DNA of 64,000 bases from Chloroflexota bacterium (GTDB lineage Bacteria > Chloroflexota > Dehalococcoidia > JACQUD01). The position numbers were made by a program, and so were the translations under genes. The notes beneath the pieces were generated by a model. It saw only the letters and a program-made list of their open reading frames with translations, had not been told where the DNA came from and did not search any database. Below, piece after piece: positions 49,232 through 62,921 of the stretch (position 1 is the first letter of the stretch; each line of letters starts with the position of its first letter). Location of the stretch: positions 12,590 to 76,589 of the forward strand of contig JACQUD010000074.1 in assembly GCA_016210485.1 (NCBI GenBank), given 5' to 3'.

Positions 49232-50341
49232 CTACGAAGAGAAGGCGCCCTTGATCTTGCCAAGAAGGCCCTTGGACTCCTTGGGCAGCGACGCCGGGCC
49301 CAGGGAACGACCCAGCTCCCGGAAGAGCCGCCTCTGCTCAACAGTCAGAGAATCAGGGGTCACCACCATTACCCTGACCACCTGGTCGCCGCGCCCGGCG
49401 CCCTCGCTATAGGGCACCCCCTTGCCTCTGAGGATGAAGGCCTCGCCATTTTGGGTGCCGGCGGGGATTCTCATGCTGACCGAGCCTTCCAAAGTGGGGA
49501 CCTCTATCTCATCCCCCAGGGCGGCCTGGGCGAAGTTAATAGGAATCTCGCAAAGGATATCGTGGTCCTGGCGCTGGAATAAGGGGTGAGGCTTAACATC
49601 CAAGGCAATGAGAAGGTTCCCCGCAGGCCCGCCGCGGAGCCCTGCATCCCCCTCGTTTCTGAGCAACATCTGGTTCCCCTGGTTAACACCAGGGGGTATT
49701 TTTACGGCTATCTTGCGGTGTCGCCTCTCCCTCCCTGCTCCCTGGCACGCAGAGCAAGGTGAGACGATGACTTTGCCCTCCCCCTGGCAGCGGTCGCATA
49801 TGGCCACATGAACGAACTGGCCAAAGATACTCTGCTGAGAGCGTCGCACCTCGCCACTGCCACGACAGGCGGGGCACTGGGCCGGCTGGCTACCTGGGGC
49901 ACTGCCCAAGCCGCGACACTCAGAGCAAACCTCCGTTCGAATGATACTCAGAGGCTTTTGACAGCCGAAGACGGCCTCTTCGAAGGTCAGGGCTAGCCGG
50001 TAGCGAAGGTCGGCGCCCCGCTGGGGCGCTCGACGAGTTGACGTGGCCCCTCCGAAGAAGGCATCGAATATATCACCGAAGCCGCCGAAGTCGAAACCCG
50101 AGAAGGGGCGGTCCCCCAGGGCCCCGGCGTGGCCGAAGCGGTCATAGGCCGCTCTCTTCTCCTGGTCGGAGAGAACCTGATAGGCCTCGTTTATCTCCTT
50201 GAAGCGGGCTTCGGCTTCATCCTCATCGTTGCGGTCGGGGTGGTATTTGAAGGCCAGCTTACGGAAGGCCTTCTTGATCTCCTCCTCAGAGGCACTGCGA
50301 GGCACGCCCAAGACCTCATAATAGTCTCTCTTGGTCGCCAT
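49232..50341 (-). CDS. dnaJ: Molecular chaperone DnaJ (type I)
   Basis: [13 protein letters not shown]...[19 protein letters not shown], a G/F region and four CxxCxGxG zinc-finger repeats. ATG at 50341 is preferred over the ORF opening at 50374. No dnaK or grpE is adjacent. Confidence 0.93.
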
Positions 50342-50490
50342 AGATACAATCGCCCTATCCTTTCCAACTCCCATTATAGAGCCTGCCCCGAAGGAAGTGA
50401 AGCGGCATAGGATGGCGAAGCCAAGGATGAGCCTCTCTTGAGTGAGAGAGCGGCAAAATATACTTTTTAAACAGTCTCCGCATCTTAAAC

Positions 50491-52851: not shown

Positions 52852-53658
52852 CTAGACCCTTGCCACCGCCCGTTTCGACTCGCCAGCCAGGACCTCCGCC
52901 GCCGCCTTGACCGAGGCCCCCTCGTGGACGATGGCCCGGATGGCCTTAATCATGCCCACCGGAGACTCGGCCTGGAAGATGTTCCGCCCCATATCCACCC
53001 CGACAGCGCCCCGGGAAACGGCGTTGTAGGTGACTTCCAGGACATCCCGCTCAGACTCCATCCTGGGCCCCCCGGCGATGACCAGGGGCACGGGGCAGCC
53101 TGTGACCACCTTCTCGAAGTCCTCGCAGTAATACGTCTTCACTATCCGGGCGCCCAGCTCGGCGGCCACCCGGCAGCACAGGGCCAGATATCGGGCCTCC
53201 CTCTTCTCCAGCTCCCGGCCCACGGAGGTCACCGCCAGCACCGGCAGGCCGAACTCCTCCGCCTCATCCACCAGCCGGGACAGATTCGTGAGGGTATCGT
53301 GCTCATCCTCCGTGCCCACGTGGATGGAGGTGGCTATCGCCGAGACGTTGAGGCGCACCGCCTCCTTGACCGAGGTGATGATGCCCTCCTTAGACAGGGA
53401 GGGGCCGGCCAGGGTCATGCCGCCCGAGACCCGCAGGATGACGGGGCCGACCTTGGCGGCGTCCACCGAGGTACGCAAGATGCCCCGGGTTACCATGATG
53501 GCATCGGCATAGGGGAGGAGGGGCTTTAGGGTTTTTTGAGGCTCCTCCAGCTTCTTGATGGGGCCCTGGAAATAGCCGTGGTCCAGGGCTAAAAAGACAG
53601 CGTGGCCCGTCTCCGGGTTGATGAGCCGGGCCATACGGTTCTTCATTCCCCAATCCAT
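52852..53658 (-). CDS. DhnA-type class I aldolase (fructose-bisphosphate aldolase / ADH-synthase family)
   Basis: RBS aaaggagg is 7 nt before ATG 53658. G.AVFLALDHGYFQGP, VLAVT and the Schiff-base Lys context RIVKTYY. Confidence 0.8.
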   Translation of the reverse strand: MDWGMKNRMARLINPETGHAVFLALDHGYFQGPIKKLEEPQKTLKPLLPYADAIMVTRGILRTSVDAAKVGPVILRVSGGMTLAGPSLSKEGIITSVKEAVRLNVSAIATSIHVGTEDEHDTLTNLSRLVDEAEEFGLPVLAVTSVGRELEKREARYLALCCRVAAELGARIVKTYYCEDFEKVVTGCPVPLVIAGGPRMESERDVLEVTYNAVSRGAVGVDMGRNIFQAESPVGMIKAIRAIVHEGASVKAAAEVLAGESKRAVARV

Positions 53659-53971
53659 GGCAAGCCTCCTTTCACCGCCCATTGGGCAGCCCTATTCTAC
53701 CACGCAGCAAACAGAGAAGGAAACCACTCTTGCCCCAGGGCTCGATAATCCCTTTGGGCCTGTACCCGAGCCAATCAGGGACAACACCACCCCTCTTTTG
53801 TCTGGCCTCAAATCACCCAAAACGGGGTGTCCAGGCATGAGGAAGCCCGGATACACTACCCACGCAAGAACAACAAAAGGATTGCAGCGTTTGAAACAAA
53901 TCAAAGGGCAGTCGGGGAAAAGAGGGAGCCCGTTTCTCACTGCCTCGGATACAAAGAAAGGAGGTAGATAG

Positions 53972-54178
53972 ATGGCTGTAGAAAAATCCATTGGTTCATC
54001 CAGCCTGGCCGAGGTGGTGGATCGCATCTTGGACAAGGGCGTAGTAGTGGACGCCTGGGTCCGCGCCAGCCTGGTGGGCATCGAGATCCTGGCCGTCGAG
54101 GCCAGGGTCGTAGTGGCCAGCGTGGACACCTTTTTAAAGTACGCCGAGGCCATTGGACTAACGGCAGCTGCGGCCTAA
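53972..54178 (+). CDS. gvpA: Gas vesicle structural protein GvpA
   Basis: RBS aaaggagg. The 68-aa sequence [55 protein letters not shown] is near-identical to the canonical GvpA core. Confidence 0.97.
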
Positions 54179-54347
54179 CCCCCATAGCAAGCCGGGCGCC
54201 GGGGTGGCCATGCCGAAAGACGATAGCCCAGCCGGGCTCCTCTTATCAGGCCGTTCCAGGTCGGATAAAAGTCTGAAAAGATGCTGGCAAAGTCGCCTGG
54301 GGATGGCCACCCCGGAGGCAAGACCAAAACAATAATGGAGGAAACCG

Positions 54348-54887
54348 ATGACATTAGCAGAAGAAATGCGCAGCCTGGCCCAGGACATCCTGGGCTCTTT
54401 GGAGGGCAGGGCCACAGCCATTGCGGAAATCAAGCGGGAGACAAGACACCTCCGGTCCCAGACCAGGGCTGGGCTGGGGACACTTCATGAGGCACAGGAA
54501 ACCCTGCGCCGGGAGCTCGGAGAGAGCCTTGCGCAGAGCCGCTCCCACCTTCAGTCCGAGGTAGGCGCTACGCTCCAGGCCTTTGGGCGAGAGCAAAAAA
54601 CAGTGCGCCAGGACATAGCCGGCGCTCGCAACGAGTGGAGAAAGCTGAGCGTGGCCGCGCACTCCAGTAAGGGAAGGCCCGCACACCAGGGAACCGCATC
54701 CTCCCACGGGATGGTTGACCTGGGCGACCGGGCCTTCCAATACCTGACCGACCGCCCCAAGGGCACCAAAATGGCGGAGCTAGAAAAGGCGCTGGGCATT
54801 CCCCGCATCCAGATGGCCAGGGTCTTGAAAAGCCTGGTAGAGGCCAACAAGGTTAAGAAACAGGACCTCCTCTACTTCGCCGCATAA
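54348..54887 (+). CDS. Hypothetical gvp-cluster protein: N-terminal ~100-aa helical/coiled-coil region plus C-terminal winged-helix-like domain
   Basis: RBS ggagga is 6 nt upstream. The N-terminus is rich in R/E/Q/L heptads. The C-terminus FQYLTDRPKGTKMAELEKALGIPRIQMARVLKSLVEANKVKK looks like a wHTH. It occupies the position directly after gvpA. Confidence 0.6.
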   Translation: MTLAEEMRSLAQDILGSLEGRATAIAEIKRETRHLRSQTRAGLGTLHEAQETLRRELGESLAQSRSHLQSEVGATLQAFGREQKTVRQDIAGARNEWRKLSVAAHSSKGRPAHQGTASSHGMVDLGDRAFQYLTDRPKGTKMAELEKALGIPRIQMARVLKSLVEANKVKKQDLLYFAA

Positions 54888-54928
54888 AGCCCTGAACCGA
54901 ATCTCAAATATCTAGGGAGGTAGCAACC

Positions 54929-55843
54929 GTGATGGTGGAAGAGGCAACCACGCTGCTGGAGCCCCACCCACTGCCCAACTTCGTGGAGACGCCCTTTGTG
55001 GCCTCTATCGTAGAGCGGGCCTTGACCTACGTCGCTGCCGGCTTCCCCATCCACTTCCGGGGGGCCTCAGGCACCGGCAAGACCACCCTGGCCCTCCACG
55101 TAGCTAACCGGCTGGGGCGTCCCGTGGTGCTCATCCACGGCGACGAAGAGTTCACCACCTCCGACCTGGTGGGCGGCGAACACGGCTACCGAACCAGAAA
55201 GGTGATAGACAACTTCATCCACTCGGTGCTCAAGACCGAGGAGGACATGAGCCGGCGATGGGTGGACAACCGCCTCACTGTGGCCTGCAAATACGGCCTC
55301 ACCCTCATCTACGACGAGTTCACCCGCTCCCGCCCCGAGGCCAACAACGCGCTGCTCGCCGTCCTTCAGGAGAGAGTCCTGGACCTGCCTGCGGACAGAG
55401 ACGGTGAGGGCTACCTCAGCGTCCATCCCAACTTCGTTGCCATCTTCACCAGCAACCCCGAGGAATATGCCGGCGTCTTCCGCAGCCAGGACGCCCTCCG
55501 CGACCGCATGGTGACCCTGGACCTGGACGGCTTCGACAATGAGACGGAGATAGCCATCACCCAGGCCAAGTCCGGGCTGGGGCGGAGGGAGACGGAGAGG
55601 ATAGTGCGTCTGGTTCAAGCCTTGAGGGAATCGGAGACATGCGATTTCCCTCCCACCATCCGCGGCTGCATCATGGTGGCCAGGACGCTGAAGGCTCTGA
55701 ATGGTGCTGCCTCCTCCCAGGATGGCCTATTCCGACAAATATGCCTTGACGTCCTGGGCTCGGAGGCCGCCAGAGTGGGGAGCCGGGCCCAGGTATCCAG
55801 AGTCAGAGAAAAGCTATGCCACCTCCTGGAACACTACTCTTGA
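54929..55843 (+). CDS. gvpN: Gas vesicle protein GvpN (AAA+ ATPase, CbbQ/NirQ/NorQ/GvpN family)
   Basis: Walker A GASGTGKTT, Walker B LIYDEF, and overall length and context typical of GvpN. Confidence 0.93.
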   Translation: MMVEEATTLLEPHPLPNFVETPFVASIVERALTYVAAGFPIHFRGASGTGKTTLALHVANRLGRPVVLIHGDEEFTTSDLVGGEHGYRTRKVIDNFIHSVLKTEEDMSRRWVDNRLTVACKYGLTLIYDEFTRSRPEANNALLAVLQERVLDLPADRDGEGYLSVHPNFVAIFTSNPEEYAGVFRSQDALRDRMVTLDLDGFDNETEIAITQAKSGLGRRETERIVRLVQALRESETCDFPPTIRGCIMVARTLKALNGAASSQDGLFRQICLDVLGSEAARVGSRAQVSRVREKLCHLLEHYS

Positions 55844-55853
55844 GAGGACGAAT

Positions 55854-56198
55854 ATGATAGGCGCAAGCAGAGTGAAGACTTTGGGCGATATAAGGACTGC
55901 CCTAGGCATCCGCCTTCGCTCCAAGCCAGCCCAGCAGGAAGACTCCTATCGAGACGTCTATCTGCTAGGCATAGAGAAGCTAAGGATGAGGGGAGAGATG
56001 AGGCGGCTGGAGAGGCAGCGGGGAAGAGTGGAGAAACGCCTGGCTGAGATCCGCTCCAAGCTGGAGAGGCTGGCCCAGATGGCGCAGGAGGATGCCGAGC
56101 ATGAGGCTCCATCCCACCCTACGCCCCCAGGAAAACCTTCGGCGGATGCCGGGCAACCCGACCGGAGGCCATGGAAAAGGATGCCTATCCAATACTAA
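55854..56198 (+). CDS. Hypothetical gvp-cluster coiled-coil protein (114 aa)
   Basis: RBS gagagga is 5 nt before ATG 55854. LGIEKLRMRGEMRRLERQRGRVEKRLAEIRSKLERLAQMAQE is followed by a P-rich tail. It holds the positional slot between gvpN and gvpF. Confidence 0.55.
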   Translation: MIGASRVKTLGDIRTALGIRLRSKPAQQEDSYRDVYLLGIEKLRMRGEMRRLERQRGRVEKRLAEIRSKLERLAQMAQEDAEHEAPSHPTPPGKPSADAGQPDRRPWKRMPIQY

Positions 56199-56427
56199 GA
56201 AAGGACTAATTCGAGTATGGAGAGCAGTCCCCATTATCCAGAGGGACTTCAGAGCTGGAAGCAATGTAACCTGCCCTGGCAACATGGGGAGAAGCCCAGA
56301 CAACTTGCCGCAAAGGATACAAGGGAATTGAACAGGGCTGGCATTCGCAACATCTCCCGGCACCTCATGGCTCGGGAGAGAGTCAGATTGCGGAAGAGTA
56401 AACCAGAAGCAAGAGCTGGAGTGAGTT

Positions 56428-57489
56428 ATGGAAGGCAATTATATCTACGGCATCGTCGCCAGCCATAATGGGGCCGGCCTGACCCACCTGGATATCCCTG
56501 GCATCGATGGGCAGGGGCTGACCTTCCTCTGCGCCCGCCGGGACATCGCTTGCCTGGCCAGCCACTACTCCGGCCCCGAGTTCAGCTCCCTGCCTCGGGA
56601 ACAGGTGCTCCACTGCCTGCTCTCCCACCAGGCGGTGATGGAGCACGCCATGAATGAAGGCCCCGTGCTCCCGGCCAAGTTTGGGACGGTGCTCTCCGCA
56701 TCCAGCGAGCTATATCAACTCCTGGAACAAGGCCGCCCGCTGTTCCAGGAAGCCCTGAACCGCCTCCAGTACGTGGTTGAGATGGAGGTGGTCGCTACCT
56801 GGGACCTCCAGCAGGTGCTCCGGGAGATAGGGTCCCAGAGCGACATCGTCGCCGCCAGGGAAACCATAGCCCGGGAGCCCGGGGCAGGCCTGGAGGCGCG
56901 CCTCCGCCTGGGGCAGATGGTCAAGGCCTCTTTGGACCGGCGCCGGACCCAGTTCTGCGAAGTCATAGTAGGCTGCCTCCGGCCCCTGGCCGTCGACCTC
57001 CAGCCCAACGCCCTGGCCTCCGACGAGATGGTGATGAACGTCGCCTTCCTTATAGAGAGGGTGCGGCAGGCTGAGTTGGAGAGCTGTCTGAGACAACTGG
57101 ATAGCCATTTCCAGGACCAGCTTAAATTCCGGGGCATAGGCCCTCTCCCCCCTTACAGCTTCGCTACCGTGGAGGTCAGCAAGCCCGACGGAGAGAAATT
57201 GACAGCGGCCCGGCATCTCCTGGGCCTGGTAGAGACATGCTCCGAGGCAGAGGTGCGAAGAGCCTACCGACATCTGGCCGCCCAGTCTCACCCGGATCGC
57301 CAGACCAGCAGCGAGCCGCCCCAGGTAGAACTCACCCAGCTGCGCCGGGCGGCAGACCTGCTCATCGCACAGTGCCGAGGACGGATGGGAGATGACAGTT
57401 TCCTCATCGCTATAAAGCGCCGCCGGCTGGATGAAGTGCCCTTCCTCCGTTTCGCTGAGACTGAGATGGCTGGAGCCCCCCATGGCTGA
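56428..57489 (+). CDS. GvpF/GvpL family protein with a C-terminal J-domain extension (HPD motif)
   Basis: Residues 1-250 form a GvpF/L core (NYIYGIV...LP.KFGTV...GPLPPYSF). Residues ~258-316, AARHLLGLVETCSEAEVRRAYRHLAAQSHPDRQ...LTQLRRAADLL, match J-domain helices II and III, with HPD encoded at 57289-57297. Confidence 0.85.
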   Translation: MEGNYIYGIVASHNGAGLTHLDIPGIDGQGLTFLCARRDIACLASHYSGPEFSSLPREQVLHCLLSHQAVMEHAMNEGPVLPAKFGTVLSASSELYQLLEQGRPLFQEALNRLQYVVEMEVVATWDLQQVLREIGSQSDIVAARETIAREPGAGLEARLRLGQMVKASLDRRRTQFCEVIVGCLRPLAVDLQPNALASDEMVMNVAFLIERVRQAELESCLRQLDSHFQDQLKFRGIGPLPPYSFATVEVSKPDGEKLTAARHLLGLVETCSEAEVRRAYRHLAAQSHPDRQTSSEPPQVELTQLRRAADLLIAQCRGRMGDDSFLIAIKRRRLDEVPFLRFAETEMAGAPHG

Positions 57490-58258
57490 AGTTGGCAAAT
57501 ACCTCTACTGCATTATCCCCTGCTCGGTGGAACGGACTTTCGCCATCGCGCCCATAGATGACGGAGTCGGCGGGGTGAGCACAATCTGCCATGAAGGCCT
57601 GGCCGCCGTGGTCAGCGACGCCACCTCCAGGCACTATGAGAGCACCCGCAGCAACCTGATGGCCCACGAGAAAGTCCTGGAGGCAGTGATGACGGAGTTC
57701 ACCCTCCTCCCCGTGCGGTTCGGCACCGTGGCCGATGCTGCTACCCCTGCTCAGGACATCCACAAACTCCTGAGCCACAAGTCCGAGGAGTTCCGCGAGC
57801 TTCTAAGGGGGATGGAGGGAACGACAGAGCTGGGCCTCAAAGCCTTCTGGCGGAATGAGAAAGCCATCTTCCCCGAGCTCCTGGCCGAAAACCCGGAGAT
57901 AAAGCGCCTGATAGACTCCCTATCTGCCAGGTCCCGTCAGGCCAGCGCTTCGAGTCCGGAGCGCCTCCACCTGGGGCAGATGGTCAAGGAAGCCCTGGAG
58001 CTCAAGAGGGCCAGAGAGGCAGCGCAGATCCTGTCACCCCTGCGCCCCCTGGCCCAGCGACTTCGAGAGAACTTCCCGCTGGTGGACAGGATGATAGCCA
58101 ACGCTGCCTTTCTGGTGGAAAGGGAGCGTGAGCCTGAGTTCGACATAGCGGTCAGCACCCTGGATAGACAGCTAGGCCAGCGGGTAGCCTTCAAATATGT
58201 GGGGCCGGTGCCACCCTATAATTTCGTGAATATCGTTGTGAACTGGGAAGAGCTTTAG
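57482..58258 (+). CDS. gvpF: Gas vesicle protein GvpF/GvpL family
   Basis: ATG at 57482 overlaps the upstream stop. GKYLYCIIP......I....G.....I...GLAAVVSD, LLPVRFGTV and C-terminal YVGPVPPYNF. Confidence 0.9.
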   Translation: MAEVGKYLYCIIPCSVERTFAIAPIDDGVGGVSTICHEGLAAVVSDATSRHYESTRSNLMAHEKVLEAVMTEFTLLPVRFGTVADAATPAQDIHKLLSHKSEEFRELLRGMEGTTELGLKAFWRNEKAIFPELLAENPEIKRLIDSLSARSRQASASSPERLHLGQMVKEALELKRAREAAQILSPLRPLAQRLRENFPLVDRMIANAAFLVEREREPEFDIAVSTLDRQLGQRVAFKYVGPVPPYNFVNIVVNWEEL

Positions 58259-58266
58259 GTGAAGAG

Positions 58267-58524
58267 ATGAGCCTGCTTCTGAGTTTGCTGACCCTGCCCG
58301 CCCTGGGGCCTATAAGGGGGACCGGCTGGCTGGCCAAGAGAATCGCCGAGGTTGCCTGGGCCGAGATGAAGGACGAAGGGTGGGCCAGGGGCGAGCTCCA
58401 GGAACTTCAGATGCGCCTCGACCTGAGGGAGATAACCGAAGGCGAGTATGCGGAAAAGGAGGCGGCTCTCCTGGAGCAGATAAGGGCCGCTCGGGAAGCC
58501 GAGGCCTTGCCCAGCCAGCGTTGA
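58267..58524 (+). CDS. gvpG: Gas vesicle protein GvpG
   Basis: The 85-aa sequence LPALGPIRGTGWLAKRIAEVAWAEM.DE......L.ELQMRLDLREITEGEYAEKEAALLEQI matches the GvpG family pattern. Confidence 0.88.
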   Translation: MSLLLSLLTLPALGPIRGTGWLAKRIAEVAWAEMKDEGWARGELQELQMRLDLREITEGEYAEKEAALLEQIRAAREAEALPSQR

Positions 58525-58554
58525 ATACACATCACATAAGGAAGGAGGACCGAA

Positions 58555-58809
58555 ATGGTGGTCCAAGAGCTAGCCGAGCGAGCTAAGAGTCAACTGAAAG
58601 ACATCACAGGTCTAATGCCCTCGGCCGTCACCGAGGCCTTCAAGGACGACCTGGGATGGCACATAACCCTGGAGGCACTGGAGATGGCCAGGGTCCCCTC
58701 TACCGCCGACGTCCTGGGCATCTACGAGGCCATCCTGGACGAAGAGGGCAAGCTGCTCAGATTCCAGCGAAAGCGAGCTCGCCTCCGCTGCCAGACGACA
58801 GAAGAATAA
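58555..58809 (+). CDS. gvpO: Gas vesicle protein GvpO
   Basis: A...L.DITG......T.......GW.ITLEALEMARVPSTADVLGIYEAILDEEGKLLRFQRKRA matches the actinomycete-type GvpO pattern (GW.V.VEV.E..RIP...D.LA.YEV.LD..G.L..Y.R). Confidence 0.82.
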   Translation: MVVQELAERAKSQLKDITGLMPSAVTEAFKDDLGWHITLEALEMARVPSTADVLGIYEAILDEEGKLLRFQRKRARLRCQTTEE

Positions 58810-58825
58810 ACTAAGGAGGGAACTC

Positions 58826-59125
58826 ATGAACTCACTAGCGCCCAGAGATACCCTCTCCCTGGCCGACGTTATCGACCGAGTCCTGGACAAGGGCCTGGTC
58901 ATCAACGCCGACATCGCCGTCTCCCTGGCCGGCGTCGAGCTTCTGGGCATCAAGATACGAGCCACCCTGGCCTCCTTCGAGACGGCGGCCCGATACGGCC
59001 TAGAGTTCCCCTCCGGCACCCGGCTGGACACCCCCGCCTGGAGGTCAATCATGGCAGAGGCCGACCCCATCCCCTCCGGCAACGGACACCGCCAGGGAGA
59101 GCTCCCCATCATTGAGGCCAGATGA
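58826..59125 (+). CDS. gvpJ: Gas vesicle protein GvpJ (GvpA/J/M family)
   Basis: LSLADVIDRVLDKGLVINADIAVSLAGVELLGIKIRATLASFETAARYGL. Confidence 0.88.
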   Translation: MNSLAPRDTLSLADVIDRVLDKGLVINADIAVSLAGVELLGIKIRATLASFETAARYGLEFPSGTRLDTPAWRSIMAEADPIPSGNGHRQGELPIIEAR

Positions 59126-59128
59126 GCC

Positions 59129-59449
59129 GTGCCTCTCCGAATCGACGAGGATGGCCTGAAACAGGGGGTGCTGGGGCTAGTTCTGGCCCTGGTGGAGATC
59201 ATCAGGGATGCCCTTAAGCACCAGGCCCTGAGACGGGTGGAGGGCGGGAGCCTGAGCCCACAGGAGATGGAAAGACTGGGGCGGGCGCTGGAGGACCTGG
59301 ACGCCGCCATCGAGGAGATCCAGCAGGAACTGGGGCTCAACGAGGCTGTAAGGTCACTTCGGGAGGGCCTGGACGAGCTGGTGGACGATGCCCTGGAGAG
59401 GATAATAAACCCGGAGAGATGGCAGGGTGCAGCTGAGGCGAGGAATTGA
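59129..59449 (+). CDS. gvpK: Gas vesicle protein GvpK
   Basis: GTG start. GLKQGVLGLVLALVEIIRDALKHQALRRVEGGSLSPQEMERLGRAL..LD..IEEIQQELGL. Confidence 0.88.
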   Translation: MPLRIDEDGLKQGVLGLVLALVEIIRDALKHQALRRVEGGSLSPQEMERLGRALEDLDAAIEEIQQELGLNEAVRSLREGLDELVDDALERIINPERWQGAAEARN

Positions 59450-59450
59450 T

Positions 59451-60224
59451 ATGAGAGAGGGGCGCTACCTGTATTGTATCGTCCCCGAGAGGGAGCAGAT
59501 GAGCCTGGAGAGCATCGGACTGGGAGGTAAAAAGACCTACACCATCCCCTATGAAGACCTGGCGGCCGTGGTCCACCGCTGCCCGGCTCAACCCTACGCC
59601 TCCCAGGAACATGAGATGGCGATAGCCTGGGTTACGGCCCATCAAGAGGTAGTGGAGGCTGCCTGGCGGAGATGGCATCCTATCCTGCCCCTGAGCTTCA
59701 ATAACATCATTGTAGGGGATACAGAGAAAGAAGCGGAGCAAAAGGTGAGGGGATGGCTGGAACATGAATACGAAAGGCTCAAGAGGAAGATGGAGAAGAT
59801 GACGGGTAAGGACGAGTTCGGTGTCCAGGTCTTCTGGCATCCCAGAGCCATTGCCCAGAGCTTGAGCCAGAGTAGCCCGGAGCTCCGCCAGATGGCTGAG
59901 GAGATTAAGGCCGCACCCAGGGGCCGAGCCTACCTGCTCCGGCAGCGGCTGGGAACATTGTTGAAGGAGCAAATGGAGGCCTGGGCCAGCCAGTGCTGCC
60001 AAGACATATATAGCAATATCCGCCAGCACATCGACGATATCTTTTGGGAAAAAACAAAGAAGAGCGAGGAGGATATGAAGATGCTCCTGAGCCTCTCCTG
60101 CCTGGTCTCCCGAGGGAAGGAAAAGGGATTGGGGGAGGAGTTGGAGACCATAAGCCGGAGGGAGGGCTTTTCAGTGCGCTTCACAGGGCCCTGGCCCCCC
60201 TATAGCTTTGTGGGAAATCCCTGA
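59451..60224 (+). CDS. Gas vesicle protein GvpL/GvpF family (third paralog)
   Basis: ATG at 59451 lies 1 nt after the gvpK stop. GRYLYCIVP....................Y.DLAAVVH ... ILPLSF, C-terminal FTGPWPPYSF. Confidence 0.88.
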   Translation: MREGRYLYCIVPEREQMSLESIGLGGKKTYTIPYEDLAAVVHRCPAQPYASQEHEMAIAWVTAHQEVVEAAWRRWHPILPLSFNNIIVGDTEKEAEQKVRGWLEHEYERLKRKMEKMTGKDEFGVQVFWHPRAIAQSLSQSSPELRQMAEEIKAAPRGRAYLLRQRLGTLLKEQMEAWASQCCQDIYSNIRQHIDDIFWEKTKKSEEDMKMLLSLSCLVSRGKEKGLGEELETISRREGFSVRFTGPWPPYSFVGNP

Positions 60225-60235
60225 GAGGAGACTTT

Positions 60236-60523
60236 ATGGAGCCAAGCCGCCATCCCCAGGCCACGCTGCAGGACCTGCTGAACCGAGCCTTGGACAGGGG
60301 GTTAGTGATAAACGCTGACCTCGTCATCTACCTGGCCGGGGTCCCCCTCCTGGGGGTCAACCTGAGAGCCGCCATAGCGGGCATGGAGACCATGCTCCAG
60401 TATGGCCTTATGAAGGAGTGGGACGAACAGCTCCGTGCCAGCGCGCAAAACAAGCTGGAGGCCGCCTCACTGCTTCCGGCCGCCCTCCCCAGCCGAGAAT
60501 GCCTGGAGGCGAAAGATGTCTAG
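60236..60523 (+). CDS. GvpA/J/S-family small gas vesicle protein (second minor paralog)
   Basis: ATLQDLLNRALDRGLVINADLVIYLAGVPLLGVNLRAAIAGMETMLQYGL is a GvpA-family core with a divergent C-terminal tail. Confidence 0.85.
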   Translation: MEPSRHPQATLQDLLNRALDRGLVINADLVIYLAGVPLLGVNLRAAIAGMETMLQYGLMKEWDEQLRASAQNKLEAASLLPAALPSRECLEAKDV

Positions 60524-62024
60524 AGCCGTCGGGATAGACCTGGGGACCACCTACACAGTGCTGGCCGTCATCGAGGGTGACCAGCCCAGGGTCATCCCCA
60601 ATGCCGAAGGGGAGCTGCTGACCCCTTCGGTAGTAACCTTCACCCAGGACGAGCAACCTTTGGTGGGACTGCCGGCCAAGCTTCAGGCCGCGGCTCACCA
60701 CCAATGGGCCGTAGCCTCCATAAAAAGGCATATGGGCTCCGGCCACAGGGTACAGGTGGGGGAGAGGGAGCACACCCCTGAGGAGATATCTGGCTTCATC
60801 CTGAGAAAGGTTAAGACCGATGCCGAAGCCTACCTGGGGGAAAGCATAGATAAAGCTGTTATCACCGTGCCCGCCTATTTCAACGACCGACAGCGCCAGG
60901 CTACTCGGCAGGCCGGCTTCCTGGCTGGCCTGCAGGTGCTCCGCATCATCAATGAGCCCACCGCCGCCGCCCTGGCCTATGGCCTGGACCGAGAGGATAT
61001 TCACACCGTTCTGGTCTGGGACCTGGGCGGCGGCACCTTCGATGTATCTATCCTGGAGATAGAGGCAGGAATCCTGGAGGTGAGGGCTGTCAGCGGGGAC
61101 CCTTGGCTGGGGGGAGACGACTACGACCAAAGACTGGCGGACTACCTGGCGGGGCTTTACCCGGAGCCCTGGGGGAAGGCCTTTCGACAGGATAGAAGCC
61201 TCCGGCAAAGGCTTCAGGAGGCCGCGGAGAAGGCTAAAATCGAGCTTTCCACTCAGCCCTGGGCTCAGGTCCGCTTGCCCACAGCCCTACCAGAGCGAGA
61301 GGAGACCGCCTCTTTCAAAACCACCGTTATCCGGGAGCAGTTTCAGGCGCTGACCCGAGACCTGCTGGAGAGGATGATACCCCCTACGGAACAGGCCCTG
61401 GCCGATGCCGAGCTGAAACCTGGCGATATCCACAGGGTGCTCCTGGTGGGAGGAGCCACCAGGATGCCCGCCGTCCAGGAGCTGGCCCGGGAGCTCCTGG
61501 GACAGGAGCCTTACCGGGGCCTCAACCCCGACGAGGCGGTGGCCCTGGGAGCCGCCCTCCAGGCCGGGATGCTCCTGGGTCAAATGAAGAAGACCATCCT
61601 CCTGGACGTGCTCCCTCTCTCCCTGGGGGTGGAAACCCAGGGAGGCCTCTTCGCCAGAGTCCTCCGCCGGAACATCCACCTGCCCGCGGCGGAGTCCCGC
61701 ATCTTCACCACCGCTGCCGACAACCAGACCTCCATGGACATCCATGTCCTTCAAGGGGAACAGGAGCGGGCACAGGACAACTTATCCCTGGGTCAATTCC
61801 AACTCCAGGACATCCCACCCCTATCTAAGGGCGTGCCCAGGGTCGAAGTAACCTTCGAGGCAGATGTGAACGGCATCCTGCATGTCTCCGCCCGAGACCT
61901 GCTCTCGGAGAGCGAGGCTAAGGCGGAGATGATTGCCCGCCCTGATCACTACCCAGAGAAACCCCCTCTATCTCTAGCTACTTCCCAGGGCCGCGCCTTC
62001 GAAACTCCCAGGATTTCAGGATGA
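60516..62024 (+). CDS. Hsp70/DnaK-family ATPase lacking the C-terminal helical lid (502 aa)
   Basis: ATG at 60516 overlaps the upstream gvp gene by 8 nt. VGIDLGTTYTVLAV, ITVPAYFND.QRQAT..AG.LAGL.VLRIINEPTAAALAYG, DLGGGTFDVSIL, VLLVGGATRMPAVQE, and linker plus beta-SBD ILLDVLPLSLGVET.GG.F. It ends ~40 aa after the beta-sandwich, with no alpha-lid and no EEVD. Confidence 0.9.
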   Translation: MSRAVGIDLGTTYTVLAVIEGDQPRVIPNAEGELLTPSVVTFTQDEQPLVGLPAKLQAAAHHQWAVASIKRHMGSGHRVQVGEREHTPEEISGFILRKVKTDAEAYLGESIDKAVITVPAYFNDRQRQATRQAGFLAGLQVLRIINEPTAAALAYGLDREDIHTVLVWDLGGGTFDVSILEIEAGILEVRAVSGDPWLGGDDYDQRLADYLAGLYPEPWGKAFRQDRSLRQRLQEAAEKAKIELSTQPWAQVRLPTALPEREETASFKTTVIREQFQALTRDLLERMIPPTEQALADAELKPGDIHRVLLVGGATRMPAVQELARELLGQEPYRGLNPDEAVALGAALQAGMLLGQMKKTILLDVLPLSLGVETQGGLFARVLRRNIHLPAAESRIFTTAADNQTSMDIHVLQGEQERAQDNLSLGQFQLQDIPPLSKGVPRVEVTFEADVNGILHVSARDLLSESEAKAEMIARPDHYPEKPPLSLATSQGRAFETPRISG

Positions 62025-62030
62025 GCCGAT

Positions 62031-62060
62031 TTGACAGCAGGAGGCAACCATCTCTAGAAT
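62031..62060 (+). promoter_or_regulatory. Promoter candidate for the GreA-like gene
   Basis: TTGACA at 62031-62036, an 18-nt spacer, then TAGAAT at 62055-62060. This suggests the gene is transcribed separately from the gvp operon. Confidence 0.5.
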
Positions 62061-62099
62061 AGAATAGTTTTCAACAGGATCATCCAGGAAAAGGAAGTT

Positions 62100-62921
62100 T
62101 TGCTGCCATCTGCGGACATCACCCTGGCCCAGACCTCGGCCCGCTATCTGGCTGGCCTACCGCCGGAGAAGCGGGCTGCGGAGCAGGGAGAGCTAAACAA
62201 ATTCATCCGCTGGTGCGGGAGTGACCGCCCCGTCGCCGGCCTCAGTGTCCACAATGTAGCCAGCTACGCCGAGACGGCCTCCGCCTGGGGAGGCGACGTT
62301 ACCCAAAGGCTGGAGCCGGTTCGCTCTTTCCTCCTCTTCCTTAAGCAGCAGAAGATAAGCTCTGTTAATCTAGCCACCCACTTGAAATGGAGGAAAGGCA
62401 CAGTTCGGGCCTCACCTCCTCCCAGAAAAAAGAGGGAACTTTCGGAGACTGAGGCCTCGGCTCTGAGCCTGGAGGGCCGCACCCAGATAGAGACGGATCT
62501 GGCAGCGCTCCGAGCGGAGAGGCCTCAACTGGCCGAGGAAATCCGCCATGCCGCGGCGGACAAGGACTTCCGAGAGAACTCCCCCCTGGATGCGGCCAAA
62601 GAGCGCCAGGCCCATGTGGAGGGACGTATTCGAAACTTGGAGACCCTCCTTCACCTCCACACCATGGCGGAGGCCACGGGCGACAAGAAAGTGACGGCCA
62701 AGGCCAACCTGGGCTCCCGATTGGTGCTCCATGACCTGACCCGAGACCAGGAGATGCGCTGCACCCTGGTATCCCCTGCCGAGGCCTCCCCCCGGGAGGG
62801 AAAGGTCTCCTCCACATCGCCCTTGGGTAAGGCGCTCTTGGATAAAGGCCCCGGCGAGGTAGTGGAAGTGACGGCCCCTGCAGGCAAGTTCCACTATCTC
62901 ATCGAGGCCGTGGAGGGATGA
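62100..62921 (+). CDS. GreA/GreB-family transcript-cleavage-factor homolog with a ~120-aa N-terminal extension
   Basis: TTG start. The C-terminal ~150 aa read L.L.G....E..L..LR.ERP...E.I..A..DKDFRENSPLDAAKERQ...EGRI..LE..L plus a GreA C-terminal domain (G.KVSS.SPLGKALL.KGPGEVVEV..P.G). The N-terminal domain resembles an integrase SAM-like core-binding fold; that similarity is weak. Confidence 0.7.
   Translation: MLPSADITLAQTSARYLAGLPPEKRAAEQGELNKFIRWCGSDRPVAGLSVHNVASYAETASAWGGDVTQRLEPVRSFLLFLKQQKISSVNLATHLKWRKGTVRASPPPRKKRELSETEASALSLEGRTQIETDLAALRAERPQLAEEIRHAAADKDFRENSPLDAAKERQAHVEGRIRNLETLLHLHTMAEATGDKKVTAKANLGSRLVLHDLTRDQEMRCTLVSPAEASPREGKVSSTSPLGKALLDKGPGEVVEVTAPAGKFHYLIEAVEG

Follow-up and report, generated by a model that had tools for sequence, protein, structure and literature searches.

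Positions 53972-62024 of a stretch of 64,000 nucleotides (nt) from an uncultured Dehalococcoidia metagenome-assembled genome (MAG; 1.24 Mb, completeness 69%), the whole of which is called the window here, hold a gas-vesicle (gvp) gene cluster on the + strand. One of its GvpF/L paralogues bears a genuine J-domain, and a dedicated gvp Hsp70 paralogue closes the operon. With a probability of about three in four, positions 53906-62024 form one operon for gas-vesicle formation, a reduced version of a cluster type that is conserved in Dehalococcoidia/Chloroflexota. The searchable literature appears to hold no description of this type, in which a GvpF bears a J-domain and the Hsp70s form a private clade.

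Thirteen open reading frames (ORFs), all on the + strand and none of them broken or interrupted by an internal stop, were found in the order A-x-N-x-FJ-F-G-O-J-K-L-M-Hsp70 (Table 1). Each was searched against family models (Pfam, NCBIfam); the gvp families were recovered, with GvpF/L, G, J, K, M/S and N all above the Pfam gathering thresholds, and no ORF was pseudogenised. An earlier note on this DNA, made from the sequence alone, had described 13 same-strand gas-vesicle genes with tight coupling at three junctions, and these claims were borne out: the genes overlapped by 8 nt at 57482/57489 and at 60516/60523 and were separated by 1 nt at 59449/59451. The remaining gaps were mostly 1-41 nt, the exceptions being 169 nt past gvpA and 229 nt past the coiled-coil gene. 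GGAGG-like ribosome-binding sites preceded most cluster genes, and G+C content did not shift between the cluster and its flanks. The end of the operon was set at the Hsp70 gene because a strong promoter-like site lies at 62031-62060 and opens a GreA-like gene's own unit. Gene names given in the earlier note were essentially right, with two refinements: its 'gvpF/L-J' is a GvpF/L protein with a DnaJ J-domain, and its 'gvpA/J/S-like' gene is, from family matches, best called GvpM-like.

A J-domain GvpF and a cluster Hsp70

The J-domain of the fusion was located at approximately residues 255-317 (nt 57190-57378), with the HPD motif intact at residues 288-290 (nt 57289-57297). A total of 418 homologues were retrieved at E < 1e-5, the nearest just 53-54% identical; among the top 120, nearly all had both PF06386 and PF00226, and HPD was kept in 97-98%. 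The AlphaFold2 model (predicted local distance difference test, pLDDT, 81) was matched by Foldseek at E 1e-13 to two GvpF structures, 6l5d and 4qsg, and its tail to many J-domains, including the DnaK-bound 5nro_B, at ~2 Å over 57 residues. Only two J-domain matches were found in the 69%-complete window genome, the canonical DnaJ and the GvpF-J fusion. GvpF is a proposed chaperone of GvpA (PMC11445434), and GvpA causes proteotoxic stress in E. coli when unchaperoned (PMC12848028), so that a J-domain on a GvpF paralogue is mechanistically sensible.

The same fusion was found on plasmid pOA238_160 (NC_020910) of Octadecabacter arcticus 238, which we take to be a cultured, gas-vacuolate bacterium. 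The gene at L130:15743-16825 (L-numbers denote related gvp loci) codes for a GvpL/GvpF protein of 360 amino acids (aa) with a DnaJ domain (28.0 bits vs 27.8); the record annotates it just as 'GvpL/GvpF family', with the DnaJ domain unmentioned. GvpA, N, G, O, K and Hsp20 were found alongside the fusion. Unlike the window, this cluster has no Hsp70 and is ordered N-Hsp20-F-G-O-J-FJ-L-M-F-K.

The window Hsp70 comprises a nucleotide-binding domain, linker and beta substrate-binding domain, and the helical lid is absent: it aligned to residues 1-466 of Geobacillus DnaK (2v7y), followed by a short unrelated tail, and ended ~35 residues past the beta substrate-binding domain. The lid was retained in most gvp-linked relatives (562-619 aa) and was absent from the window copy, L015 and L046. 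Identity was 65-68% to gvp-linked Hsp70s of Dehalococcoidia and 55-57% to those of Desulfobacterota. A maximum-likelihood tree placed the gvp-linked Hsp70s in one clade (support 100/98) with the DnaKs apart (98/99), and the window protein beside the lid-less L015 copy. The canonical full-length DnaK of the same genome is encoded on contig C76 and is 48% identical to the gvp Hsp70. Canonical DnaK was also found in ten other genomes checked; 7 of the 10, those with a gvp-cluster Hsp70, have both.

Two other identities were rejected for this protein. Canonical DnaK was excluded by scores under the cut-offs (NF001413, 626.6 bits vs 648; TIGR02350, 613.8 vs 822.55), the missing lid and the separate clade, and HscA by TIGR01991 (500.7 bits vs a cut-off of 708.55). 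Gvp-linked Hsp70s read ETQGG (Chloroflexota) or ETEGG/ETEEG (Desulfobacterota) where DnaK has ETMGG/ETLGG. From the known DnaK structure, this position is that of the substrate-cleft arch residue Met404 of E. coli DnaK, so a change of specificity is possible.

The arrangement shares its logic with HscB/HscA, in which a client-binding J-protein and a specialised Hsp70, both devoted to the Fe-S scaffold IscU, are encoded with that client beside the housekeeping DnaK/DnaJ. Unlike HscB, the window J-domain is fused to a GvpF fold, and the putative clients would be gas-vesicle shell proteins. ArsA and Hsp20 genes in gvp clusters were already known (PMC2963123). A full-text literature search (subscription journals outside its coverage) returned no paper tying gas vesicles to a J-domain or a cluster Hsp70, and in the literature searched neither a J-domain GvpF nor an Hsp70 was reported for the Anabaena/Serratia or Streptomyces clusters. 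The J-domain/Hsp70 pair was considered the most interesting part of the locus; the earlier note had given just the gene names.

Cluster type, relatives and unlinked partner genes

Class-level comparison covered 41 genomes, of which the 40 nearest relate to the window genome at class level only, each from a separate family. GvpN was found in 9 of the 41 and the J-fusion in 8 of those 9. All 13 window genes had one-to-one syntenic orthologues in the main long reference loci L004, L005 and L007 (blastp), and the chaperone-equipped layout was matched to these and ~25 further loci (blastp, tblastn synteny). A 'Chloroflexota-type chaperone-equipped gvp cluster' was defined here by an A-[repeat protein]-N-cc head, a GvpF/L-J fusion and F-G-O-...-J-K-L-M-Hsp70, a layout that the window cluster has. 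Three long homologue-bearing contigs read A, a 197-310-aa unknown, N, small proteins, FJ, F, G, O, (F), J, Hsp20-like, K, L, M, Hsp70. Among species-representative genomes, scanning gave 80 loci, across which synteny extends (tblastn).

Within Chloroflexota the J-fusion was found in Dehalococcoidia, Anaerolineae, Ktedonobacteria (Dictyobacter aurantiacus S27), Oscillochloris and Ardenticatenaceae, and beyond them in Desulfobacteraceae, Syntrophales, Desulfatiglandales, Nitrospinae and Aerophobus. Desulfobacterota, Aerophobota, Nitrospinota and Octadecabacter have variants of the cluster type. Loci of the Dehalococcoidia and Desulfobacterota types and of Aerophobus end in 'K L M Hsp70'; those of the Anaerolineae, Oscillochloris and Ktedonobacteria types do not.

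Relatives have up to eight additional cluster genes. The window cluster is without the zinc-finger, CxxC and x97 genes, the fourth GvpF, the in-cluster Hsp20-like gene and ArsA, and was therefore regarded as a reduced form of the conserved type. The closest comparison is with Dehalococcoidia/Chloroflexota MAG clusters (e.g. GCA_016190715 JACPPZ010000015, GCA_030018195 JASEFO010000008 and DAOULY010000011), which have the 13 orthologues in the same order as the window and share with it the J-fusion, the terminal Hsp70 and a hairpin in the gvpA leader. Over and above these they carry a C2H2-like zinc-finger, a CxxC-rich protein, full-length x167 and x97, a fourth GvpF, an in-cluster Hsp20-like gene and sometimes ArsA; unlike the window, they keep the Hsp70 lid and have an adjacent pair of HTH-GvpH-like and Cdc48-like genes. 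In L005:13405-14517 and L007:15645-16715 the GvpM-like protein has a ~280-residue C-terminal extension with faint GRAM and Vps36-GLUE (PH-like) matches, which the window copy is without.

The two small 'unknowns' on either side of gvpN, of 179 and 114 aa, are conserved cluster members as judged from synteny. The 114-aa coiled-coil protein had no family match in the Pfam/NCBIfam searches, and its adjacency to gvpN ('N (zf) cc') recurred in ~30 loci, including Desulfobacterota. The 13 ORFs counted in the earlier note are real, and the count may be 14 because the 229-nt 'gap' holds an 83-aa ORF. This ORF matched L004:7246-7527 at the syntenic place with 56% identity over 25 residues (tblastn), and an alignment with the family showed the ORF to lack the conserved block at the C-terminus; a 14th gene or a relic are both possible.

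The pair of genes found next to the cluster in the MAGs above was located on contig C12 of the window genome (locus L131:1448-4320), intact, overlapping by 4 nt and beside the ribosomal str operon. In many relatives the HTH_3-Hsp20/GvpH-like and Cdc48-like genes lie directly past Hsp70, and in other cluster types the Cdc48-like gene immediately precedes the J-fusion; in the seven relatives with both partner genes, both were on the gvp contig. A Cdc48-like orthologue (>= 65% identity) was found in 9/9 gvp-positive and 0/32 gvp-negative class genomes, and the HTH-GvpH-like gene in 8/9 and 1/32. Since close orthologues of the C12 pair are almost confined to gvp-positive genomes of the class and usually adjoin the gvp cluster there, the gvp system was taken to be split over two loci here. 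The earlier suggestion of a 'minimal, self-contained' cluster was accordingly abandoned, given these partners on C12, the up to eight more genes of the relatives and the lost Hsp70 lid. A promoter-like site, TTGACA-17-TATAAC, lies upstream of the HTH-GvpH-like gene (C12:20380-20446); the palindrome AACATATGTT stands just upstream of its -10 hexamer and abuts it, and may be an auto-operator. The GGGAGCC motif of the gvpA leader was not found upstream of the C12 pair.

Among classical systems, Halobacterium salinarum p-vac (gvpACNO / gvpDEFGHIJKLM) shares with the window the A-[C-slot]-N 5' end, F-G-...-J-K-L-M and GvpO. The best NCBIfam matches of the window J, M, L and G proteins were haloarchaeal models, and a GvpH-like protein (PF05455) is encoded in the window genome. 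Unlike p-vac, the window has a single one-strand operon without GvpD, GvpE or GvpI, three GvpF/L paralogues (one with the J-domain) and a terminal Hsp70; its GvpH-like gene has HTH_3 and is unlinked, and its C-slot protein is not homologous to Halo_GVPC. The earlier description as an actinomycete-style set plus gvpN was not sustained, because 13/13 genes are syntenic orthologues of the Dehalococcoidia/Chloroflexota type, and both gene order and the best NCBIfam matches suggest the gvpFGHIJKLM layout of haloarchaea. The window content of O, F, G, J, L, S/M and K is similar to Streptomyces gvpOAFGYZJLSK, but gvpN is present above its equivalog cut-off and the order differs (gvpY and gvpZ were not searched for). 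To our knowledge, actinomycete gvp clusters lack gvpN. The resemblance of the 5' order A-x-N-x-F-G to the Anabaena/Serratia A-C-N-(V)-F-G layout, pointed out in the same note, was upheld (PMC11445434). No GvpC-repeat, GvpV or GvpW family match was obtained for the window proteins in Pfam or NCBIfam.

The gvpC slot, the gvpA leader and alternative readings

The 179-aa protein encoded between gvpA and gvpN was modelled by AlphaFold2 (pLDDT 91.8) as a single helix at residues 3-107 (105 residues, pLDDT 97), a disordered linker and a winged helix at residues 120-178. Foldseek matched the winged helix to Zalpha- and IclR-type domains (~1.2 Å over 59 residues), and sub-threshold Pfam matches were to HTH_IclR, TrmB and MarR_2. 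The family of 18 members was collected from syntenic ORFs, because a word-indexed homologue search yielded just one other sequence. Its traits are a conserved N-terminus, a variable tandem helical repeat block, a Pro/Ala-rich linker and usually a conserved C-terminal domain. Repeats were significant against shuffles (z 5-37), with periods of 25 (L016, L019, L022), 32 (L028), 33 (L004, L015, L032), 40 (L066, L020, L037, L038), 43 (L024) and 51 residues (L018). GvpC is described as a poorly conserved rod with helical repeats of 33-40 residues (PMC9372576); the architecture of the 179-aa family fits that description despite the lack of a sequence link, and the protein was therefore rated a candidate GvpC analogue. 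The statement in the earlier note that no GvpC is present stands as far as matches to GvpC repeat families go, and falls short in that the gvpC slot holds a helical family whose other members have tandem repeats, with periods including 33 and 40. Sequence homology to GvpC was rejected on the Pfam and hhalign results, and the same-slot protein of Octadecabacter likewise proved unrelated.

Upstream of gvpA, a hairpin with a GGGAGCC apex is probably a real conserved element. GGGAGCC-like motifs were found in 18 related loci (exact GGGAGCC in 14), 48-69 nt before gvpA, and the hairpin arms vary between loci while staying complementary within each. RNAalifold on MAFFT leader alignments predicted no structure; because the distance of the arms from the motif varies, a flank-swap test and a covariance-model alignment were needed. 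In the former, a mean of 16.5 pairs was formed around the motif vs 11.9 +/- 1.0 with 3' flanks swapped among loci (0/200). The covariance model, run over both strands of 810 kb, gave 14 hits at E <= 1, 13 of which were gvpA-leader sites; the fourteenth (E 0.99) lay inside another gene. In the model-fitted alignment, which is biased towards structure by construction, 72% of cells were paired vs 58% in shuffles and 36-55% in slid controls, and both-side changes numbered 34 cells vs 16 in shuffles (0/500). Rfam had no meaningful match within 53600-62200. A role in mRNA stability or translation, or as a protein-binding site, may be suggested.

Other features were noted in the same region. No promoter emerged upstream of gvpA when the sequence was scanned for the sigma-70 consensus. 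GTATAC/GTATCC-like words recur 60-120 nt upstream of gvpA (~53850-53870 in the window) and, upstream of the hairpins, in L013, L018, L020, L021, L025, L026, L034, L035, L037, L045 and L051; they are possible targets of the LuxR-type response regulator adjoining some relatives' clusters. A 13-bp perfect inverted repeat surrounds the gvpA-orf179 spacer (54199-54315), where a 181-nt region folds modestly better than shuffles (z -1.9).

Several observations count against the reading given at the outset. The cluster comes from an uncultured MAG that is 69% complete. One subclade of the fusion (L018, L020, L021, L025-L027, L029, L031, L034, L035, L037-L040, L046, L051, L054) has HPD replaced, e.g. 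by AAQQQRS or AAEAQRD, and retains both the J-like tail and, where the contig extends far enough, the cluster Hsp70, so that signalling through the J-domain is not a universal requirement. Conversely, the fusion is present without a cluster Hsp70 in clusters of the Anaerolineae, Oscillochloris and Octadecabacter types. The window Hsp70 lies on a long branch (0.72 vs a median of 0.21) and has lost its lid, as under relaxed constraint. With the relatives' accessory genes absent and one gene truncated as well, the cluster could be decaying or non-functional. As to the 179-aa protein, the window copy has no significant tandem repeat (z 2.0 vs shuffles), no Pfam GvpC match (PF01304, PF05465) was obtained at E <= 5 for it and five orthologues, a comparison of the family profile with Halobacterium GvpC by hhalign yielded a probability of 0.3%, and the winged helix could mean a regulator instead.

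The last possibility survives best, as a tentative alternative for this one protein. The 179-aa protein would then be a transcriptional or post-transcriptional regulator, with the winged helix binding DNA or RNA (e.g. the leader hairpin) and the long helix dimerising. The confidently predicted winged helix, its likeness to the IclR, MarR and Zalpha nucleic-acid binders and the sub-threshold matches all agree with this, as does the absence of any regulator gene next to the window cluster where relatives have an adjacent two-component pair. Repeat number and period, however, differ widely among orthologues, as in structural GvpC; the winged helix is wholly absent from L007, L011 and L034; and the hairpin is also present in L021, L026 and L035, where no such gene was detected. 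The GvpC-like reading draws on the position of the gene, the long helix and the tandem repeats of the orthologues; an outer-surface rod in the GvpC role is the most likely function of the 179-aa protein.

Decay of the whole cluster, in an organism past making gas vesicles, was judged unlikely. The lid-less, long-branched Hsp70, the truncated 83-aa ORF and the missing fourth GvpF, in-cluster Hsp20-like, zinc-finger, CxxC and ArsA genes can be read as steps of gene loss, and the genome is small at 1.24 Mb and 69% completeness. Against this, none of the 13 core ORFs is broken, their ribosome-binding sites and translational coupling are in place, GvpA and GvpN keep 76-90% and 73-76% identity with relatives, the leader hairpin is still present, both unlinked genes (GvpH-like and Cdc48-like) are intact, and the L015 and L046 MAGs are likewise lid-less, the L015 cluster being otherwise complete.

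The least probable explanation, that Hsp70 and J-domain serve general proteostasis or stress protection and are merely co-transcribed with the gvp genes, is in keeping with the long-standing view of cluster Hsp20 and ArsA as generic chaperones (PMC2963123) and with clusters that have the J-fusion without Hsp70 or Hsp70 with a degenerate HPD, but hundreds of proteins have the J-domain covalently joined to a gas-vesicle assembly fold, the separate gvp-linked Hsp70 clade travels with the cluster across phyla, canonical DnaK is retained in each such genome, and the Hsp70 start overlaps the gvpM stop.

Feature coordinates, proposed mechanism and meaning

The genes flanking the operon are housekeeping genes, as the earlier note had it: family searches identified a zinc alcohol dehydrogenase (Zn-ADH), a DeoC-type aldolase, DnaJ, the GreA-like gene and COX3. 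The GreA-like protein (62100-62921) has GreA_GreB_N and C domains at residues 122-272 and ~120 extra N-terminal residues.

Table 1. Features of the gas-vesicle operon, its surroundings and the unlinked pair. Positions are those of the window unless contig C12 is named.
Feature	Position	Strand	Evidence
Conserved hairpin, gvpA 5' leader (probable)	53906..53947	+	GGGAGCC apex at 53924-53930, 48 nt upstream of ATG
gvpA, major shell protein, 68 aa	53972..54178	+	PF00741 E 2e-14; NF006874 129 bits (cut-off 100); 76-90% identity with relatives
179-aa protein, candidate GvpC analogue	54348..54887	+	directly after gvpA; orthologues 27-31% identical
gvpN, AAA+ ATPase, 304 aa	54929..55843	+	TIGR02640 334 bits (cut-off 267, equivalog); PF07728; 73-76% identity with relatives
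114-aa coiled-coil protein	55854..56198	+	ends WKRMPIQY; downstream of gvpN (GvpV position); orthologues 32-34% identical in L004, L005, L007
83-aa ORF, truncated family member	56217..56468	+	motif SRxLMARERxR; overlaps J-fusion gene by 41 nt
GvpF/L paralogue fused to J-domain, 353 aa	56428..57489	+	PF06386 E 6e-52; PF00226 29.5 bits vs 27.8
gvpF, second GvpF/L paralogue, 258 aa	57482..58258	+	PF06386 E 1e-62; 56-64% identity with relatives
gvpG, 85 aa	58267..58524	+	PF05120 62.7 bits vs 30.6
gvpO, 84 aa	58555..58809	+	PF05800 62.7 bits vs 25
gvpJ, 99 aa	58826..59125	+	PF00741 61.6 bits; top NCBIfam haloarchaeal GvpJ, 98 bits, under cut-off 125
gvpK, 106 aa	59129..59449	+	PF05121 67.6 bits vs 25
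gvpL, third GvpF/L paralogue, 257 aa	59451..60224	+	PF06386 E 2e-66; NF045778 GvpL 179 bits, under cut-off 200
gvpM/S-like, small hydrophobic GvpA-family protein, 95 aa	60236..60523	+	PF00741 51.6 bits; top NCBIfam haloarchaeal GvpM, 83 bits, under cut-off 109
gvp-linked Hsp70 paralogue, 502 aa	60516..62024	+	PF00012 E 3e-174, model positions up to 495/599; start overlaps gvpM by 8 nt
Promoter-like site TTGACA-18-TAGAAT	62031..62060	+	directly past Hsp70 stop; 11/12 consensus matches
Canonical DnaJ gene	49232-50374	-	3.6 kb upstream of gvp operon
HTH_3 + Hsp20/GvpH-like gene	C12:20447-21166		Pfam HTH_3, HSP20, GvpH (PF05455) 28.1 bits vs 22
Cdc48-like double-AAA+ gene	C12:21163-23322		Pfam CDC48_N, CDC48_2, two AAA domains

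In the mechanism proposed, GvpF-type proteins would attach to GvpA, J and M at their hydrophobic face, and the J-domain of the fusion would recruit the gvp-specific Hsp70 and trigger its ATPase. Aggregation-prone shell subunits would thus be kept soluble and passed to the growing vesicle, the pair working as a client-dedicated J-protein/Hsp70, as HscB/HscA does. The 179-aa helix and winged-helix protein would most likely serve as the outer-surface rod in the role of GvpC, and the leader hairpin would probably govern the stability or translation of the gvpA mRNA.

A joint version of these ideas, regarded as a long shot, sees vesicle building in these lineages as an ATP-driven process under active chaperoning, with the J-domain GvpF loading shell subunits onto the private Hsp70, the GvpH-like small heat-shock protein (sHsp) and a Cdc48-type unfoldase as backup, the winged helix of the gvpC-slot protein binding nucleic acid, and the lid-less Hsp70 as a minimal version for a bulky, partly assembled client. 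If true, the winged helix on the GGGAGCC hairpin would couple shell synthesis to the pool of free coat protein, and on the nucleoid instead it would tether the vesicles.

Since many gvp clusters do not work in E. coli and GvpA is proteotoxic (PMC10344784, PMC12848028), clusters equipped with chaperones could help engineering. The cluster of Desulfobacterium vacuolatum (FWXY01000008:1268-24724) functions in E. coli at 30 °C. With a truncated Hsp70 and two linked partner genes encoded elsewhere, the window locus itself is no ready-made minimal cassette. For the control of gvpA, the leader hairpin is a candidate for a new cis-regulatory element. The J-domain GvpF, the Hsp70 clade, the sHsp and the Cdc48-like ATPase offer a concrete, testable model of how GvpA, a very hydrophobic protein, could stay soluble and enter the growing shell.

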